Assembly (NCBI RefSeq): GCF_055900595.2
Contig: NZ_CM148325.1
Strand: one strand, 5' to 3'
DNA length: 64,000 bases
Shown here: positions 2,989 through 29,877 of the stretch, in pieces
How positions within the stretch are numbered: the stretch's first letter is position 1
Layout: the number at the start of each line of letters is the position of its first letter
Translations under genes and position numbers: made by a program
Notes under the pieces: model-generated
Database searches by the model: none
Seen by the model: only the letters and a program-made list of their open reading frames with translations
Told to the model about the DNA's origin: nothing

Positions 2989-3900
2989 GTGAGTACATTA
3001 GAACAAACAATAGGCAATACGCCTCTGGTGAAATTACAACGAATGGGGCCGGATAACGGCAGTGAAGTGTGGTTAAAGCTGGAAGGCAATAATCCGGCCG
3101 GTTCGGTGAAAGATCGTGCGGCGCTTTCGATGATCGTCGAGGCGGAAAAGCGCGGGGAAATTAAACCGGGTGATGTGTTAATCGAAGCCACCAGTGGTAA
3201 CACCGGGATTGCGCTGGCAATGATCGCTGCGCTAAAAGGCTATCGCATGAAATTGCTGATGCCCGATAACATGAGCCAGGAGCGTCGCGCGGCGATGCGT
3301 GCCTACGGTGCGGAGCTGATTCTGGTCACCAAAGAGCAGGGCATGGAAGGTGCGCGCGATCTGGCGCTGGAGATGGCGAATCGTGGCGAAGGCAAGCTGC
3401 TCGATCAGTTTAATAATCCCGATAATCCTTATGCGCATTACACCACCACCGGGCCGGAAATCTGGCAGCAAACCGGCGGTCGCATTACCCATTTTGTCTC
3501 CAGCATGGGGACGACCGGTACGATTACCGGCGTGTCGCGCTTTATGCGCGAGCAATCCAAACCGGTGGCGATTGTTGGTCTGCAGCCGGAAGAGGGCAGC
3601 AGCATTCCCGGCATTCGTCGCTGGCCTGAGGAATATCTGCCAGGCATCTTCAACGCTTCGCTGGTGGATGAGGTGCTGGATATTCATCAGCGTGATGCGG
3701 AAAACACCATGCGCGAACTGGCAGTGCGGGAAGGGATTTTCTGCGGTGTAAGTTCCGGTGGCGCGGTTGCCGGAGCACTGCGGGTGGCAAAAGCCAACCC
3801 CGGCGCTGTAGTGGTGGCGATCATCTGCGATCGCGGCGATCGCTACCTTTCTACCGGGGTGTTTGGGGAAGAGCACTTTAGTCAGGGGGCGGGGATTTAA
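2989..3900 (+). CDS. cysM: Cysteine synthase B (O-acetylserine sulfhydrylase B), GTG start
   Basis: 303 aa; PLP-dependent cysteine synthase fold with lysine motif ...GSVKDRAA...; operon position after cysA. Confidence 0.95.
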   Translation: MSTLEQTIGNTPLVKLQRMGPDNGSEVWLKLEGNNPAGSVKDRAALSMIVEAEKRGEIKPGDVLIEATSGNTGIALAMIAALKGYRMKLLMPDNMSQERRAAMRAYGAELILVTKEQGMEGARDLALEMANRGEGKLLDQFNNPDNPYAHYTTTGPEIWQQTGGRITHFVSSMGTTGTITGVSRFMREQSKPVAIVGLQPEEGSSIPGIRRWPEEYLPGIFNASLVDEVLDIHQRDAENTMRELAVREGIFCGVSSGGAVAGALRVAKANPGAVVVAIICDRGDRYLSTGVFGEEHFSQGAGI

Positions 3901-3938
3901 GGATTAATAGCATTGGAGGCTGATGACAAACGCAAAAC

Positions 3939-4037
3939 TGCCTGATGCGCTACGCTTATCAGGCCTACAAGGTTCCTGTAATATATTGAATTAGCAATAT
4001 TTTGTAGGCCGAATAAGGCGTTTACGCTGCATCTGGC
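3939..4037. repeat. BIME-like pair of REP elements
   Basis: tgcctgatgcgctacgcttatcaggcctaca (3939-3969) and gtaggccgaataaggcgtttacgctgcatctggca (4003-4037) in inverted orientation. Confidence 0.6.
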
Positions 4038-4104
4038 ATAAACAAAGTGCACTTTGTCAATAATCTGCTTTGTCGGCAGTTGTTGCTGCCGACAAATGCA
4101 GTTT

Positions 4105-6794: not shown

Positions 6795-8522
6795 TTAGCA
6801 GATTGTTTTTTCTTCAATGAACTTGTTAACCAGCGTCATTAACTCGTCCGTTGTCGGTTGAGCAAGAGCCTGCTCTGCTAACACCTTCGCATCTTCGAAG
6901 TTCGTGTTACGGATAATCTTCTTAATGCGCGGGATAGAAATGGCGCTCATAGAGAATTCGTCCAGACCCATCCCCAGCAACAGAAGTGTAGCACGTTCAT
7001 CGCCAGCAAGCTCACCACACATGCCAGTCCATTTGCCTTCAGCATGAGAAGCATCAATAACTTGCTTGATCAAGTTCAGCACGGACGGTGACATTGGCTG
7101 GTAAAGGTGTGAAATCATATCATTACCACGGTCAACTGCCAGAGTGTACTGCGTTAAATCATTGGTGCCGATACTAAAGAAATCAACTTCTTTGGCTAAA
7201 TGACGTGCAATTGTTGCGGCCGCTGGTGTTTCCACCATTACGCCGATTTCAATTGACTCGTCAAACGCTTTACCTTCGTCGCGCAGTTCCTGTTTGTAGA
7301 TTTCGATCTCTTTGCGCAGTGCACGCACTTCTTCAACAGAGATGATCATCGGGAACATGATGCGCAATTTACCGAAAGCAGAGGCACGCAGGATAGCGCG
7401 GAGCTGATCGCGCAGGATCTCTTTACGATCCATCGCGATACGGATAGCGCGCCAGCCGAGGAACGGGTTCTCTTCTTTCGGGAAGTTCATGTATGGCAGC
7501 TCTTTGTCGCCGCCGATGTCCATGGTACGAACGATAACCGCTTGTGAGCCACACGCTTCAGCTACTGCTTTGTAAGCAGCAAACTGTTCTTCTTCAGTGG
7601 GCAGCGCGTCGCGGTCCATGAACAGGAACTCAGTACGATACAGACCAACGCCTTCAGCGCCGTTACGCTCTGCACCTTCAACGTCACGAACCGTACCGAT
7701 GTTAGCGCACACTTCTACCTGGTGACCGTCCAGCGTAATAGCTGGCAGATCTTTCAGTTTAGCAAGCTCTGCTTTTTCAGAAGCCACTTGCTCCTGAACA
7801 GCGCGCATTTTATCAATAACTTCGTTGGTTGGATTGACGTAAACCTGATTATTTACGGCATCCAGAATCAGATAGTCGTCATTTTTCACCTGAGAGGTGA
7901 CGCTACCGGTACCCACGATAGCAGGCAGTTCCAGAGAACGCGCCATGATAGAGGTGTGGGAAGTACGGCCACCCGCGTCGGTGATGAAACCCAGCACCTT
8001 CTTCAGGTTCAGCTGTGCGGTTTCGGACGGCGTCAGATCAGCGGCAACCAGAATGACTTCATCCTGAATGGCGCTCAGGTCGATAATCTTCAGGCCCAGG
8101 ATGTTGCGCAGCAGGCGCTTACCGATATCACGTACGTCAGCCGCACGCTCTTTCAGGTATTCATCATCCAGCTCTTCCAGGGCAGAAGCCTGACCTTCGA
8201 TAACTTCATGAGCAGCTGCGTCAGCTGTCATGTGCTTATCTTTAATCAGGGCTATGATTTCCTGCTCCAGCTCCTCATCTTCGAGTAGCATAATATGCCC
8301 TTCAAAGATGGCTTCTTTTTCTTCACCGAACGTTTCACCAGCTTTCGTTTTGATCGTTTCCAGCTGGGCTGATGCCTTGGCACGACCGCTCAGAAAACGT
8401 TCAACTTCCTGATCAACCTGGTCGGCAGAAATTTTTTTCCGGTCAATGACAATTTCGTCTTCTTTCAGAAGCAGAGCTTTACCGAAAGCGATACCCGGGG
8501 ATGCTAAAATGCCTGAAATCAT
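6795..8522 (-). CDS. ptsI: PTS Enzyme I (phosphoenolpyruvate-protein phosphotransferase)
   Basis: 575 aa, recognisable EI sequence; ptsH-ptsI-crr operon. Confidence 0.97.
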
Positions 8523-11354: not shown

Positions 11355-12353
11355 ATGATGCAGGATTTGCGTCTGATATTAATCATTGTTGGCGCGATCG
11401 CCATAATCGCTTTACTGGTACATGGTTTCTGGACCAGCCGTAAAGAACGATCTTCTATGTTCCGCGATCGGCCATTAAAACGAATGAAGTCAAAACGTGA
11501 CGACGATTCTTATGACGAGGATGTCGAAGATGATGAGGGCGTTGGTGAGGTTCGTGTTCACCGCGTGAATCATGCCCCGGCTAACGCCCAGGAGCATGAG
11601 GCTGCTCGTCCGTCGCCGCAACACCAGTACCAACCGCCTTATGCGTCTGCGCAGCCGCGTCAACCGGTCCAGCAGCCGCCTGAAGCGCAGGTACCGCCGC
11701 AACATGCTCCGCGTCCAACGCAGCCGGTGCAGCAACCCGTGCAGCAGCCTGCCTATCAGCCTCAGCCTGAACAGCCGTTGCAGCAGCCAGTTTCGCCACA
11801 GGTCGCGTCAGCGCCGCAGCCAGTGCATTCAGCACCGCAACCGGCACAACAGGCTTTCCAGCCTGCAGAACCTGTAGCGGCACCACAGCCTGAGCCTGTA
11901 GCGGAACCGGCTCCAGTTATGGATAAACCGAAGCGCAAAGAAGCGGTGATTATCATGAACGTCGCGGCGCATCATGGTAGCGAGTTAAACGGTGAACTGC
12001 TTCTTAACAGCATTCAACAAGCGGGCTTTATTTTTGGCGATATGAACATTTACCATCGTCATCTTAGCCCGGATGGCAGCGGCCCGGCGTTATTCAGCCT
12101 GGCGAATATGGTGAAACCGGGAACCTTCGATCCTGAAATGAAGGATTTCACTACTCCGGGTGTCACTATCTTTATGCAGGTACCGTCTTACGGTGACGAG
12201 CTGCAGAACTTTAAGCTGATGCTGCAATCTGCGCAGCATATTGCCGATGAAGTGGGCGGTGTAGTGCTTGACGATCAGCGCCGTATGATGACTCCGCAGA
12301 AATTGCGCGAGTACCAGGACATCATCCGCGAAGTCAAAGACGCCAACGCCTGA
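11355..12353 (+). CDS. zipA: Cell division protein ZipA (start trimmed to MMQDLRL; track ORF over-extended)
   Basis: N-terminal TM anchor, charged region, long P/Q-rich linker, C-terminal FtsZ-binding domain; recognised sequence. Confidence 0.93.
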
Positions 12354-21008: not shown

Positions 21009-21078
21009 ATGAGAGGCACGGGAACTGCCGGACATAGTTGGTCTGATAAGCGAAGCGCATCAGGCAATTTCGCAAATT

Positions 21079-21291
21079 GCAGATAGCAAAAAAGCGCCTT
21101 TAGGGCGCTTTTTTACATTGGTGGGTCGTGCAGGATGACTCGCTTCGCTCGCCCTTCGGGCCGTCGCCGCGAGCGGCTCCGTTGTTTCGCTGCGCTCAAC
21201 TCGAACCTGCTGCAGGTTCGAATCTTTGAGTATCGCAGATAGCAAAAAAGCGCCTTTAGGGCGCTTTTTTACATTGGTGGGTCGTGCAGGA
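21079..21291. repeat. 57-bp direct repeat (two copies, 21079-21135 and 21235-21291) comprising the lysV terminator plus the 3'-terminal 17 nt of tRNA-Lys
   Basis: gcagatagcaaaaaagcgcctttagggcgcttttttacattggtgggtcgtgcagga occurs twice 156 bp apart; second copy continues into intact lysV. Confidence 0.7.
21243..21269 (-). terminator. Rho-independent terminator of the valU-valX-valY-lysV tRNA operon
   Basis: On minus strand: stem agcgcc/ggcgct followed by TTTTTT, immediately 3' of lysV CCA end. Confidence 0.55.
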
Positions 21292-24596: not shown

Positions 24597-24768
24597 GTCT
24601 CTGCTTTTTGCCGCTTTTGTAATACAGTCTACGTCCGGGTCAGCGCCGCCTGGTGAAAGCATCATTGGATGAAAAATCGGCAACAGGCTGGCCTCTGTTT
24701 GCTTCGCGATGCGAATAAACTTATTATTTGTGTGCCTGAAAACCCCGATCAGTGAGAGTAGTGTACTC

Positions 24769-26958
24769 ATGTTTGTGGAGCATAACCTGATAAAAAATAT
24801 CAAGATATTCACACTAGCGTTTACGCTCACCGTGGTACTTATTCAGCTATCCCGTTTTATTTCGCCACTTGCCGTTATCCATTCCAGTTATATCTTTTTG
24901 GCGTGGATGCCACTGTGCGTAATGCTGGCAATCTTGTTTATCTTTGGCTGGCGCGGTGTCGTTCCTGTTTTAGGCGGGATGTTTTGCACCAATCTGTGGA
25001 ATTTTCATCTCTCTTTTTTACAGAACTCCGTCATGCTCGGCAGCCAGACGTTTGCAGTCCTGTGTGCCTGTGCAATATTACGCTGGCAATTGGGAACGCG
25101 TTGGCGTTATGGTTTGACCAGCCGATACGTCTGGCAACGTCTCTTCTGGCTTGGTTTGGTGGCACCGATTGGCATCAAATGCAGCATGTATCTTGTGGGG
25201 AATTTCTTTGATTTTCCGCTAAAGATATCTACCTTTTTCGGCGATGCGGATGCCATTTTCACGGTCGTTGATTTGCTAAGCCTTTTCACCGCAGTGCTGA
25301 TTTACAACATGCTGTTTTACTATCTCACCCGCATGATTGTAAGTCCCCACTTTGCGCAGATACTGTGGCGCAGGGATATCGCTCCGTCGTTGAGCAAAGA
25401 GAAACGCGTATTTACCTTAAGCTGGCTGGCAGCTCTTAGCGTGCTGCTACTTCTGATGTGTACACCGTATGAAAATGACTTCATTGCCGGTTACCTGGTA
25501 CCTGTTTTCTTTATCATCTTTACCCTCGGGGTCGGTAAGCTTCGCTATCCGTTTTTAAATCTCACCTGGGCTGTTTCAACGCTTTGCCTTCTGAATTACA
25601 ACCAGAACTTTTTGCAAGGGGTACTAACCGAATATTCGCTGGCATTTATTCTCGCGGTGCTGATTTCCTTTAGTGTTTGCCTGCTCTATATGGTGCGCAT
25701 TTATCATCGTAGTGAATGGCTTAACCGACGCTGGCATTTGCAGGCGCTGACCGATCCGTTAACGCTCTTACCCAACTTTCGCGCGTTGGAACAAGCACCA
25801 GAGCAAGAGGCTGGCAAGAGTTTTTGCTGCCTGCGTATTGATAACCTTGAGTTTATGAGTCGTCATTACGGGTTAATGATGCGCGTTCACTGTATCCGCT
25901 CAATTTACCGTACGTTAATGCCGCTGATGCAGGAAAACGAAAAGTTGTATCAATTGCCGGGGAGTGAACTGCTATTAGTACTGAGCGGGCCGGAAACGGA
26001 AGGGCGACTCCAGCATATGGTTAACATCCTGAATAGTCGGCAAATTCACTGGAACAATACCGGGCTGGATATGGGCTATGGTGCCGCCTGGGGGCATTTC
26101 GATGGAAATCAGGAAACCCTGCAACCCTTGTTGGGGCAGTTAAGCTGGCTGGCGGAGCAATCCTGCGCACATCATCATGTGCTGGCGCTGGATAGCAGAG
26201 AGGAGATGGTTTCCGGGCAAACCACTAAACAGGTGCTATTGCTGAATACCATTCGCACGGCGTTAGATCAGGGTGATTTGCTGCTCTACGCCCAGCCAAT
26301 TCGCAACAAAGAGGGTGAAGGTTATGATGAGATCCTCGCGCGACTGAAGTATGACGGCGGCATTATGACCCCGGATAAGTTTCTGCCCCTTATTGCTCAG
26401 TTTAACCTTAGCGCGCGTTTTGATTTGCAAGTGCTGGAATCCTTGTTGAAGTGGCTGGCAACACACCCTTGCGACAAAAAAGGTCCGCGCTTTTCAGTCA
26501 ATTTAATGCCGCTCACGCTGCTGCAAAAAAATATCGCCGGGCGGATTATTCGTCTGTTTAAGCGTTATCACATCTCCCCGCAGGCGGTCATTCTTGAGAT
26601 CACCGAGGAACAGGCGTTTTCTAACGCAGAAAGCAGTATGTACAACATCGAGCAGCTGCATAAGTTTGGTTTCCGGATTGCGATTGATGATTTTGGCACC
26701 GGCTATGCCAACTACGAACGGCTAAAGCGTTTGCAGGCTGATATCATCAAAATTGATGGCGTCTTTGTGAAAGATATCGTCACGAACACGCTGGATGCGA
26801 TGATTGTGAGATCAATTACCGATCTGGCGAAAGCGAAGTCATTGAGTGTGGTCGCGGAGTTTGTCGAGACGCCACAGCAGCAGGCGCTATTGCATAAGCT
26901 CGGGGTGCAATATCTGCAAGGGTATTTGATTGGTCGCCCTCAGCCATTAACTGATTAA
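24769..26958 (+). CDS. pdeA: c-di-GMP phosphodiesterase PdeA (YfeA): N-terminal membrane sensor region, degenerate GGDEF-like and EAL domains (start trimmed to MFVEHNL)
   Basis: 729 aa from trimmed start; multiple TM helices then C-terminal EAL-type motifs (QPIRNKEGEGYDEILARL, DDFGTGYANY). Confidence 0.9.
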   Translation: MFVEHNLIKNIKIFTLAFTLTVVLIQLSRFISPLAVIHSSYIFLAWMPLCVMLAILFIFGWRGVVPVLGGMFCTNLWNFHLSFLQNSVMLGSQTFAVLCACAILRWQLGTRWRYGLTSRYVWQRLFWLGLVAPIGIKCSMYLVGNFFDFPLKISTFFGDADAIFTVVDLLSLFTAVLIYNMLFYYLTRMIVSPHFAQILWRRDIAPSLSKEKRVFTLSWLAALSVLLLLMCTPYENDFIAGYLVPVFFIIFTLGVGKLRYPFLNLTWAVSTLCLLNYNQNFLQGVLTEYSLAFILAVLISFSVCLLYMVRIYHRSEWLNRRWHLQALTDPLTLLPNFRALEQAPEQEAGKSFCCLRIDNLEFMSRHYGLMMRVHCIRSIYRTLMPLMQENEKLYQLPGSELLLVLSGPETEGRLQHMVNILNSRQIHWNNTGLDMGYGAAWGHFDGNQETLQPLLGQLSWLAEQSCAHHHVLALDSREEMVSGQTTKQVLLLNTIRTALDQGDLLLYAQPIRNKEGEGYDEILARLKYDGGIMTPDKFLPLIAQFNLSARFDLQVLESLLKWLATHPCDKKGPRFSVNLMPLTLLQKNIAGRIIRLFKRYHISPQAVILEITEEQAFSNAESSMYNIEQLHKFGFRIAIDDFGTGYANYERLKRLQADIIKIDGVFVKDIVTNTLDAMIVRSITDLAKAKSLSVVAEFVETPQQQALLHKLGVQYLQGYLIGRPQPLTD

Positions 26959-27018
26959 CAGGCGTAAAAAAAGCAGGGAATTATCCCCGGCTTTTGTGGC
27001 TGATGACAAACAGAAAAA

Positions 27019-27049
27019 TGCCTGATGCGCTACGCTTATCAGGCCTACA
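27019..27049. repeat. REP element in yfeA-nupC spacer
   Basis: tgcctgatgcgctacgcttatcaggcctaca, same REP unit as at 3939-3969. Confidence 0.55.
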
Positions 27050-27059
27050 TGGAATTGAA

Positions 27060-27084
27060 GCCGGGGAATTATCCCCGGCTTTTT
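27060..27084. terminator. Bidirectional rho-independent terminator (yfeA / nupC), GGGG-N6-CCCC hairpin
   Basis: 8-bp stem gccgggga/tccccggc, 4-nt loop, T5 on plus strand; A/T-rich on the other side. Confidence 0.55.
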
Positions 27085-27100
27085 AATTAATGAATTGGAC

Positions 27101-28303
27101 TTACAGCACCAGTGCTGCGATTGACGCAGACAGCACACTCACCAGAGTAGAGCCGTAAACCAGTTTCAGACCGAAGCGAGAAACCACGTTACCTTGTTCT
27201 TCATTCAGGCCTTTAACCGCACCGGCGATAATCCCGATAGAAGAGAAGTTAGCGAAGGAAACCAGGAACACAGAGATGATGCCTTCAGCACGCGGAGAGA
27301 GCGTGGAAGCAATTTTCTGCAGATCCATCATTGCAACGAACTCGTTGGAAACCAGTTTGGTCGCCATAATACTGCCCACCTGCAGTGCTTCACTGGAAGG
27401 AACACCCATCACCCACGCAACCGGATAGAAGATGTAGCCCAGGATGCCCTGGAAGGAGATGCTGTAGCCAAACCAGCCAGTCACAGTGGCAAACAGTGCG
27501 TTCAGCGCAGCGATCAGGGCGATAAAGCCGATCAGCATCGCGGCAACGATAATAGCAACTTTGAAACCTGCCAGAATGTATTCACCCAGCATTTCGAAGA
27601 AGCTCTGACCTTCGTGCAGGTTGGACATCTGAATGTTTTCTTCACTGGCATCAACACGGTAAGGGTTGATCAGTGACAGCACGATAAAGGTGCTGAACAT
27701 GTTCAGTACCAGCGCCGCAACGACGTATTTCGGCTCCAGCATCGTCATGTATGCACCAACGATGGACATCGACACGGTGGACATCGCCGTAGCTGCCATG
27801 GTGTACATACGATTGCGGGAGATTTTGCCGAGGATATCTTTATAGGCAATAAAGTTTTCAGACTGACCCAGAATCAGAGAGCTGACGGCGTTGAAGGATT
27901 CCAGTTTGCCCATACCGTTGACTTTGGAGAGCAGGAAACCAATTGCGCGGATAATCACCGGCAACACGCGAATGTGCTGGAGAATACCAATCAGCGCAGA
28001 GATAAAGACGATTGGGCACAGCACTTTCAGGAAGAAGAATGCCAGGCCTTGATCATTCATGCTACCAAAGACGAAGTTAGTCCCTTCGTTGGCAAATCCG
28101 AGCAGTTTCTCAAACATTTCGGAGAAGCCTTTCACGAAGCCCAAACCAACGTCGGAGTTCAGGAAGAACCACGCCAGTAACACTTCGATAACAAGCAGTT
28201 GAATAACATAACGGATACGAATTTTTTTGCGGTCGCTGCTTACCAGCAGTGCGAGAATCGCAACAACGGCAAGTGCCAGTACAAAATGAAGGACGCGGTC
28301 CAT
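27101..28303 (-). CDS. nupC: Nucleoside:H+ symporter NupC (start trimmed to MDRVLHF)
   Basis: 400 aa from trimmed start; concentrative nucleoside transporter family membrane profile. Confidence 0.95.

Positions 28304-28629: not shown

Positions 28630-29877
<1,248 letters not shown>

Follow-up and report, generated by a model that had tools for sequence, protein, structure and literature searches.

An unoccupied IS186 target and a hairpin duplication around a BIME-1 remnant in the pdeA–nupC spacer of Escherichia coli

IS186 is an insertion sequence of the IS4 family (PGAP annotates it as 'IS421 family'), and its target consensus was reportedly first set out by SaiSree and colleagues in 2001. 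In the available portions of the published record, the three positions of IS186 in K-12, a hot spot at lon that receives the element in both orientations and a consensus target are all documented, and no mention of IS186 together with nupC was found in the searchable literature. The site described here lies between pdeA (yfeA) and nupC in a 64,000-nt stretch of E. coli DNA, hereafter the window. It resembles the lon-promoter hot spot in that IS186 is found at one position in both orientations, and it resembles the K-12 insertion sites in offering the same G4-N6-C4 palindrome, with the 12-bp duplication geometry that is common to all three K-12 copies. However, the lon hot spot is a promoter, whereas the window site is an empty, intergenic, predicted terminator positioned beside a BIME-1 remnant and a degenerate copy of the same hairpin. 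Because the nupC–pdeA site is a predicted intergenic terminator and not a promoter, insertion there would be expected to confer no obvious selectable phenotype.

The L linker of BIME-1 carries an IHF site, and Bachellier and colleagues are said to have reported 'excisions of a whole BIME-1' in 1997. The literature describes BIME-1, for which the names RIB and RIP are also in use, as a Y and a Z1 REP with L between them. The window resembles this definition in its Y REP and left external motif, which stand in the standard arrangement, and Escherichia whittamii has the complete Y-L-Z1 order; unlike the defined element, the window is without L, Z1 and most of the right motif, and a duplication of the flanking hairpin lies outside the published definition that we found. 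According to a 2011 review, REPs lack the signatures of MITEs. Duplications are not expected of the REP-associated HUH/Y1 transposase family, and a 2026 preprint calls the mechanism of REP and BIME insertion unestablished. Searches for terminator duplications around BIME-1, and for BIME-1 together with 'direct repeat', found none in the searchable literature, although older papers may cover part of this ground, and the hairpin duplication flanking BIME-1 may be unreported.

The window is collinear with K-12 (2,497,000-2,546,000) and approximately 95.8% identical to it over 48 kb, with 89 to 99% identity per kb, an unusual degree of divergence for E. coli that assigns it to a divergent lineage of the species. 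The sequence suggests that this lineage is deep-branching, and it is possibly a cryptic clade. The convergent genes pdeA and nupC are separated by a spacer of 142 bp, bounded by the stops of pdeA/yfeA (26958) and nupC (27101), and the features of the spacer are listed in Table 1. The REP of the spacer is identical to the copy at window 3940-3968; it is a Y-type unit with the GTAG/CTAC head, identical to the Y units at 31 BIME-1 loci. The sequence on its left (GGCTGATGACAAAC...AAAAT) is the conserved motif that stands left of the Y-type REPs in other BIME-1 elements, and the same left motif precedes the Y-type REP at window 3917-3939, in trpS-yhfZ, in gudD-barA and at the 31 BIME-1 loci. Rfam scans of the window spacer and of its E. 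whittamii orthologue gave no match above the gathering thresholds; the matches returned were generic terminator-like ones and sub-threshold, REP-derived ones (anti-hemB, MicX and naRNA4).

Table 1. Features in and around the pdeA–nupC spacer (window positions unless another contig is named)
Feature	Position	Strand	Remarks
pdeA (yfeA) coding region	24709..26958	+	ORF; aligns to K-12 pdeA
Hairpin copy 1, pdeA-proximal, degenerate: aaaaaaaGCaGGGaattatCCCCgGCtttt	26963..26999		A7 run is a U7 tail on the - strand
BIME-1 left external motif and terminal inverted repeat gtGGCTGATGACAAACAGAAAAAT	26996..27019	+	
Y-type REP (palindromic unit) GCCTGATGCGCTACGCTTATCAGGCCTAC	27020..27048	+	Exact match to other REP copies; folds as a hairpin
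Deletion junction	27049..27058	+	'atgg' (start of L linker) joined to 'aattga(a)' (final bases of the BIME-1 right end)
Hairpin copy 2, nupC-proximal, perfect: aaGCCGGGGaattatCCCCGGCttttt	27058..27084		Unoccupied IS186 target; terminator hairpin (predicted), U5 tail on the + strand
GGGAATTATCCC, the 12 bp duplicated upon IS186 insertion	27064..27075		Reconstructed from K-12, ATCC 8739, Z0117EC0005, 100117 and E200086
nupC coding region	27101..28303	-	ORF; stop at spacer edge
mntH	28639-29877		Next after nupC
E. whittamii BIME-1 region	3700-3935 of its contig		

A 20-nt direct repeat, GGGAATTATCCCCGGCTTTT, is found at 26976-26995 and 27064-27083, 88 bp apart from start to start; the number expected from 100 shuffles was 0. 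The sequence-only reading of the window had described two direct copies flanking a REP, and both the repeat and the intervening REP were found, with the coordinates one base off. Copy 2 is a perfect hairpin of the G4-N6-C4 type (aGCCGGGGaattatCCCCGGCt), a 10-bp perfect inverted repeat with a folding energy of -21.5 kcal/mol on the + strand (z = -4.8) and -20.2 kcal/mol on the - strand. Copy 1 (gcaGGGaattatCCCCggc) has a run of three G and a mismatched stem, and at -12 kcal/mol (z = -1.3) folds no better than shuffled sequence. The further claim that the GGGG-N6-CCCC motif itself is duplicated is correct for copy 2 and fails for copy 1, where the run is GGG and the stem is broken: the sole G4-N3-7-C4 motif of the window is GGGGAATTATCCCC, at 27063-27076 in copy 2, and copy 1 falls short of four G. 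The motif is not rarer than chance (0.47 expected per 64 kb, one observed), and its significance comes from orthology with occupied sites and not from rarity. With approximately 0.5 expected per 64 kb, most G4-N6-C4 motifs are never hit by the element.

Most E. coli have a 49-bp spacer at this locus, with one perfect hairpin, A6-GCCGGGG-aattat-CCCCGGC-T6. In K-12 MG1655, a 1337-bp IS186 lies inside the orthologous hairpin with GGGAATTATCCC on both sides. The sequence-only reading had placed an IS186 of MG1655 between nupC and yfeA (pdeA), and this was confirmed: alignment to MG1655 placed the element in the same spacer, inside the orthologous hairpin, with its target duplication within the GGGG-N6-CCCC motif. 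The duplication measures 12 bp (10 bp when the IS is taken to run from C to G, as C...G) and lies within GGGG-aattat-CCCC. The targets of the other two IS186 copies in K-12 are gcGGGGatcactCCCCgc and gcGGGGagtaatCCCCgc, where GGG-N6-CCC is again duplicated over 12 bp, and 3/3 K-12 copies therefore sit in cGGGG-N6-CCCCg, a shared target geometry that confirms the IS186 target rule empirically. The window spacer was likewise correctly read as free of a transposase and of IS186, since the spacer is just 142 bp long and no IS186 terminal repeat was found anywhere in the 64 kb.

The population distribution of IS186 was determined with junction queries across 5426 complete E. coli genomes, using right-junction counts for the nupC–pdeA site. 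At this position IS186 was present in the K-12 orientation in 477 genomes and in the opposite orientation in 465, approximately 942 of the 5426 genomes (~17%, or about 1 in 6). In the K-12 orientation, the element was found at dnaJ-mokC in 841 genomes and at hokE-entD in 1727; anywhere in the genome, it was found in about 2150 genomes, at 7828 chromosomal places. As the other two K-12 sites are also widespread, raw IS186 frequency largely reflects clade inheritance and not recurrent insertion alone. The hokE-entD insertion in the K-12 orientation, shared by 1727 of the ~2150 IS186-bearing genomes, looks old and vertically inherited, and could be the source copy of E. coli.

The window-type allele, defined by a 77-bp core, was present in exactly 17 of the 5426 genomes, and the closest match to this core at any other E. 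coli locus was the gudD-barA BIME-1, with 91.5% over 59 nt. The duplication of the hairpin, which the sequence-only reading had left unexplained, is a rare allele; one hairpin is the rule in most E. coli, K-12 included. IS186 was found in 5/17 genomes with the window-type allele, in both orientations and in every case in copy 2; in none of the 17 was copy 1 occupied. The genome of Z0117EC0005 has flanks identical to those of the window and, after removal of IS186 and one duplicate, matches the window sequence exactly. The proposal that the window represents an unoccupied IS186 site is well supported by these sister genomes, in which the element occupies copy 2 and its removal rebuilds the window. 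The target at 27063-27076 appears intact in the window, and its sequence fits both a site that was never occupied and one from which the element was precisely excised.

Single-hairpin alleles carry IS186 in the K-12 orientation in K-12 itself and in the opposite orientation in ATCC 8739, and window-type alleles carry it in the K-12 orientation in 100117 and E200086 and in the opposite orientation in Z0117EC0005 and E600003. These four combinations of allele and orientation, with identical position and duplication, indicate at least four independent insertions. The insertion points are observed directly, and it is evident from the junctions that a staggered cut of 12 bp (or 10 bp) puts IS186 in the middle of the cGGGG-N6-CCCCg palindrome. 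The recurrence of these insertions suggests a preference for the G4-N6-C4 palindrome, under which the IS186 transposase would favour cGGGG-N6-CCCCg and integrate at the palindrome centre, duplicating GGG-N6-CCC. The IS186 part of our findings is known biology, another well-populated example of a known target rule that is here unoccupied. That the K-12 IS186 between nupC and pdeA marks a recurrently used target is unsurprising, and is of use for annotation and strain typing.

Two sequence records are unusual at or near this hairpin. E. coli SCPM-O-B-8794, a GTDB representative, has an enlarged loop in the nupC terminator (GGGGtaattccaatCCCC compared with GGGGataattCCCC; contig about 3700-3760). 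The enlarged loop resembles a partial AATTCC duplication, and could be the footprint of an imprecise IS186 loss. The 50-kb plasmid record NZ_CP098226.1 (pZ0117EC0005-3) contains chromosomal tRNA-Ala genes, pdeA and the spacer, with many genes frameshifted, and an IS186 links its chromosomal part to plasmid DNA at another G/C-rich sequence, GGGGCAATCCCCC. This record is either an IS186-mediated cointegrate or an assembly chimera.

The two hairpin copies of the window might themselves be a target duplication left behind by an IS186 that has since disappeared or given way to the REP. The alignment to K-12 has features that would fit such an origin, in that K-12 matches the window up to 26987 on the pdeA side and again from 27064 on the nupC side, and the GGGAATTATCCC pair of K-12 maps onto the window repeats. 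However, the repeat is 20 bp long (~27 bp with one difference), and its left copy runs through CGGCTTTT, which in occupied sites is found only to the right of the IS. No IS186-derived sequence was found between the copies, the interior is instead a BIME-1 remnant homologous to the full E. whittamii element, and the same architecture occurs at loci that have no involvement of IS186. The probability that the copies are an IS186 leftover is in our estimate close to negligible, and an IS186-footprint origin of the repeats was rejected, as it is contradicted by the extent of the repeat and by the BIME-1 interior.

The counterpart of the window spacer in E. whittamii was informative about the origin of the duplication. 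At the same spot in E. whittamii, two perfect copies of GCCGGGGATAATTCCCCGGC enclose a full BIME-1 with the order left external motif, Y REP, L linker, Z1 REP and right external motif. Alignment of the two spacers shows that approximately 100 columns are gone from the window: L, Z1 and the greater part of the right motif. Having lost L and Z1, the window has no Y unit paired with an inverted Z1 across the long linker, and therefore holds a BIME-1 remnant and not an intact BIME-1. The anatomy and the orthology of the two spacers are directly observed. The window and E. whittamii alleles have derived bases in common (GGCTGATGACAAACA... and CTACATGG), which argues for one insertion event behind both alleles, and the hairpin would be present twice in the window because a BIME-1, now part-deleted, was placed between two direct copies. 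Copy 1 would since have dropped one G and its stem complementarity, and copy 2 would have stayed a good hairpin and an IS186 target.

We consider it highly probable, as the best explanation of the locus, that one shared terminator palindrome is both an IS186 target and the site of a duplication around BIME-1, for which a mechanism is proposed below. A single terminator palindrome would thus be used by two unrelated repeats, IS186 and BIME-1. The order of events, from one hairpin to two, is our interpretation of the comparison between alleles. The BIME allele was found in E. whittamii and in one E. coli lineage and was absent in other Escherichia, a patchy distribution that requires repeated loss or transfer. 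No full E. whittamii-type BIME-1 was found at the pdeA–nupC site among the E. coli complete genomes. The strain EC42405 has the insert on the common right flank, and RMDEC465 has one perfect hairpin on the window-type right flank. Import from E. whittamii was rejected for the flanks, since the identity of the window is 97-98% with E. coli and 88-95% with E. whittamii.

A single CCGGGG-N6/7-CCCCGG hairpin follows nupC in several Escherichia species, in Salmonella and in several Citrobacter species. Flanked by A6 and T6 tracts, the single hairpin of E. coli has folding energies of -30 kcal/mol on one strand and -25 kcal/mol on the other. From these properties we infer that the ancestral single hairpin is a conserved, predicted bidirectional intrinsic terminator of pdeA and nupC. 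It resembles bidirectional Rho-independent terminators in its A6 tract, G+C stem, T6 tract and folding on both strands, as well as in a position that is conserved across several Enterobacteriaceae genera. The window is unlike such a terminator in that its A and T tracts are split between the copies, with copy 2 predicted to provide the tail for pdeA and copy 1 the tail for nupC. On the + strand (the pdeA transcript) the copy 2 hairpin is followed by UUUUU, and on the - strand by UUCAAUU, i.e. by UU only. On the - strand, copy 1 forms a weak hairpin with U7 (the nupC tail) and was flagged as terminator-like; a terminator pattern scan of the window did not flag copy 2 on the + strand. With a U-tract on the + strand only, copy 2 is not a fully bidirectional predicted terminator. 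The description of copy 2 as doubling as a bidirectional terminator suits the ancestral single hairpin and not copy 2 alone, the tracts of the window being split between the copies.

The gene neighbourhood of the hairpin is not fixed, as E. albertii, several Citrobacter species and Phytobacter have no pdeA at the expected place downstream of the nupC terminator. Past the terminator, E. albertii has unrelated sequence, and several Citrobacter species and Phytobacter have a tRNA gene.

It is conceivable that two hairpins were the ancestral state, as separate terminators of pdeA and nupC, and that most E. coli lost one copy together with the REP by deletion. Deletion between direct repeats of 20-27 bp is mechanistically easy, the allele is common to E. 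whittamii and one E. coli lineage, and the single hairpin of RMDEC465 stands on a window-type right flank. Nevertheless, we regard ancestral duplication as very unlikely, considering that one hairpin is the state in several Escherichia species, Salmonella and several Citrobacter species, that the near-identical direct repeats bracket a mobile-type repeat, and that polymorphic BIME-1 loci elsewhere likewise have either one hairpin or two. Recombination probably does remove a copy secondarily, but as the reversal of an insertion.

The hairpin-BIME-1-hairpin arrangement was observed to recur at other loci. Within E. coli, the locus that matched the E. whittamii spacer best is ydgA-uidC of K-12, where the BIME-1 is flanked on each side by a copy of another hairpin, CGCCGGAGAnTTTTCnCTCCGGCG. 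The ydgA-uidC BIME-1 was missing from about two thirds of the sampled E. coli rows, and in O157:H7 strain 493/89, whose empty allele was examined, the hairpin is present just once. Downstream of fbp, a BIME-1 is accompanied by a perfect 23-bp duplication, AACGCCGGATTGCTCCGGCGTTT (11755-11962 of its contig), and the E. coli empty allele has one hairpin. The loop of the fbp hairpin is reverse-complemented between the empty allele (CGCCGGAgcaaTCCGGCG; 860-885) and both copies of the filled allele (CGCCGGAttgcTCCGGCG; 11760-11783). This difference could be a loop inversion within the palindrome, or a clue to how the duplication forms.

To extend the comparison beyond these loci, a metagenome scan for Y-L-Z1 yielded 31 distinct BIME-1 loci on E. 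coli-like contigs, a sample rather than a complete census. The left and right flanks of each locus were locally aligned and scored against a null of mismatched pairs. Flanking direct repeats exceeded the 99th percentile of the null at 9/31 loci (p <= 0.01; 0.3 expected), and p <= 0.05 was attained at 12/31 loci. When the full flanks were aligned, the strongest repeats lay at near-constant offsets from the BIME-1 ends; in an end-restricted analysis, direct alignment beat inverted alignment in 11/12 cases, and 9/12 repeats fold as hairpins. At about half of the BIME-1 loci no flanking repeat was detectable in these 31-locus flank alignments, which indicates that the duplication is not obligatory or has often decayed.

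Local replication slippage or template switching at the palindrome, independent of any mobility of BIME-1, could also duplicate a hairpin, if BIME-1 merely tends to adjoin terminators. One or both sides of a BIME-1 do typically adjoin a terminator hairpin, replication is error-prone at palindromes, and the inverted loop of the fbp hairpin between empty and filled alleles would be compatible with such an error. Slippage does not, however, readily account for flanking copies whose distance from the BIME-1 ends hardly varies between unrelated loci, or for empty alleles at three loci that lack both the BIME-1 and the second hairpin, and slippage alone could not supply the BIME-1 sequence. We consider slippage a very unlikely source of the duplication.

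The preferred reading, a duplication associated with the insertion of BIME-1, leads us to speculate on BIME-1 as a class. The ends of BIME-1 are imperfect inverted repeats, gAGAcTGaTGACAAAc and cAGAtTGcTGACAAAg, and the class has MITE-like properties, with terminal inverted repeats, flanking repeats at 9/31 loci and single-copy empty sites at three loci, although about half of the loci have no detectable repeat. The likeness to MITEs lies in the imperfect terminal inverted repeats, the frequent flanking target repeats and the clean empty sites. Unlike MITEs, the BIME-1 duplication is long and variable (~16-29 bp) and encompasses a whole palindrome, whereas DDE transposases give short duplications of fixed length. 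It is possible, though in our judgement short of an even chance, that each BIME-1 is a discrete ~175-bp unit, bounded by imperfect terminal inverted repeats, that integrates at palindromic intrinsic terminators and duplicates the whole palindrome (~16-29 bp, varying with the palindrome), as the clean filled and empty pairs at pdeA-nupC, ydgA-uidC and fbp tentatively suggest.

Such duplications would arise if, during BIME-1 integration, one strand were cut at one foot of the palindrome and the other strand at the opposite foot, as might happen where an extruded cruciform meets the flanking duplex. Filling in the gaps would rebuild the entire palindrome to the left and to the right of the element, much like a target-site duplication of palindrome length (~16-29 bp). 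Cleavage at the feet of the palindrome fits the variable length of the duplication, the inclusion of A/T tracts in it and the same orientation of the loops, sequence features from which we infer this model. Recombination between the two hairpin copies would precisely reverse the insertion and leave one hairpin, and such reversal would explain the patchy distribution of the allele. Decay or other routes must also exist, given the BIME-1 loci that have no repeat. We know of no enzyme, intermediate or matching transposase for the proposed integration. If the duplication is a true insertion signature, it would provide a testable handle on the spread of REPs and BIMEs, a question open since the 1980s, and it would explain the position of BIME-1 at the 3' ends of transcription units.

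The window contains two other REP-bearing regions in which a hairpin is found. An intact BIME-1, with left motif, Y, L, Z1 and right motif, is present at 3917-4100 and is directly followed by the terminator hairpin tttgtcggcagttgttgctgccgacaaa; a second copy of this hairpin is not visible on the left of the element, where a coding region ends. At 21037-21110, on the - strand, a diverged single REP (three mismatches) lies just downstream of a perfect hairpin, aaaaaagcgccctaaaggcgctttttt, that is predicted to be a bidirectional terminator.
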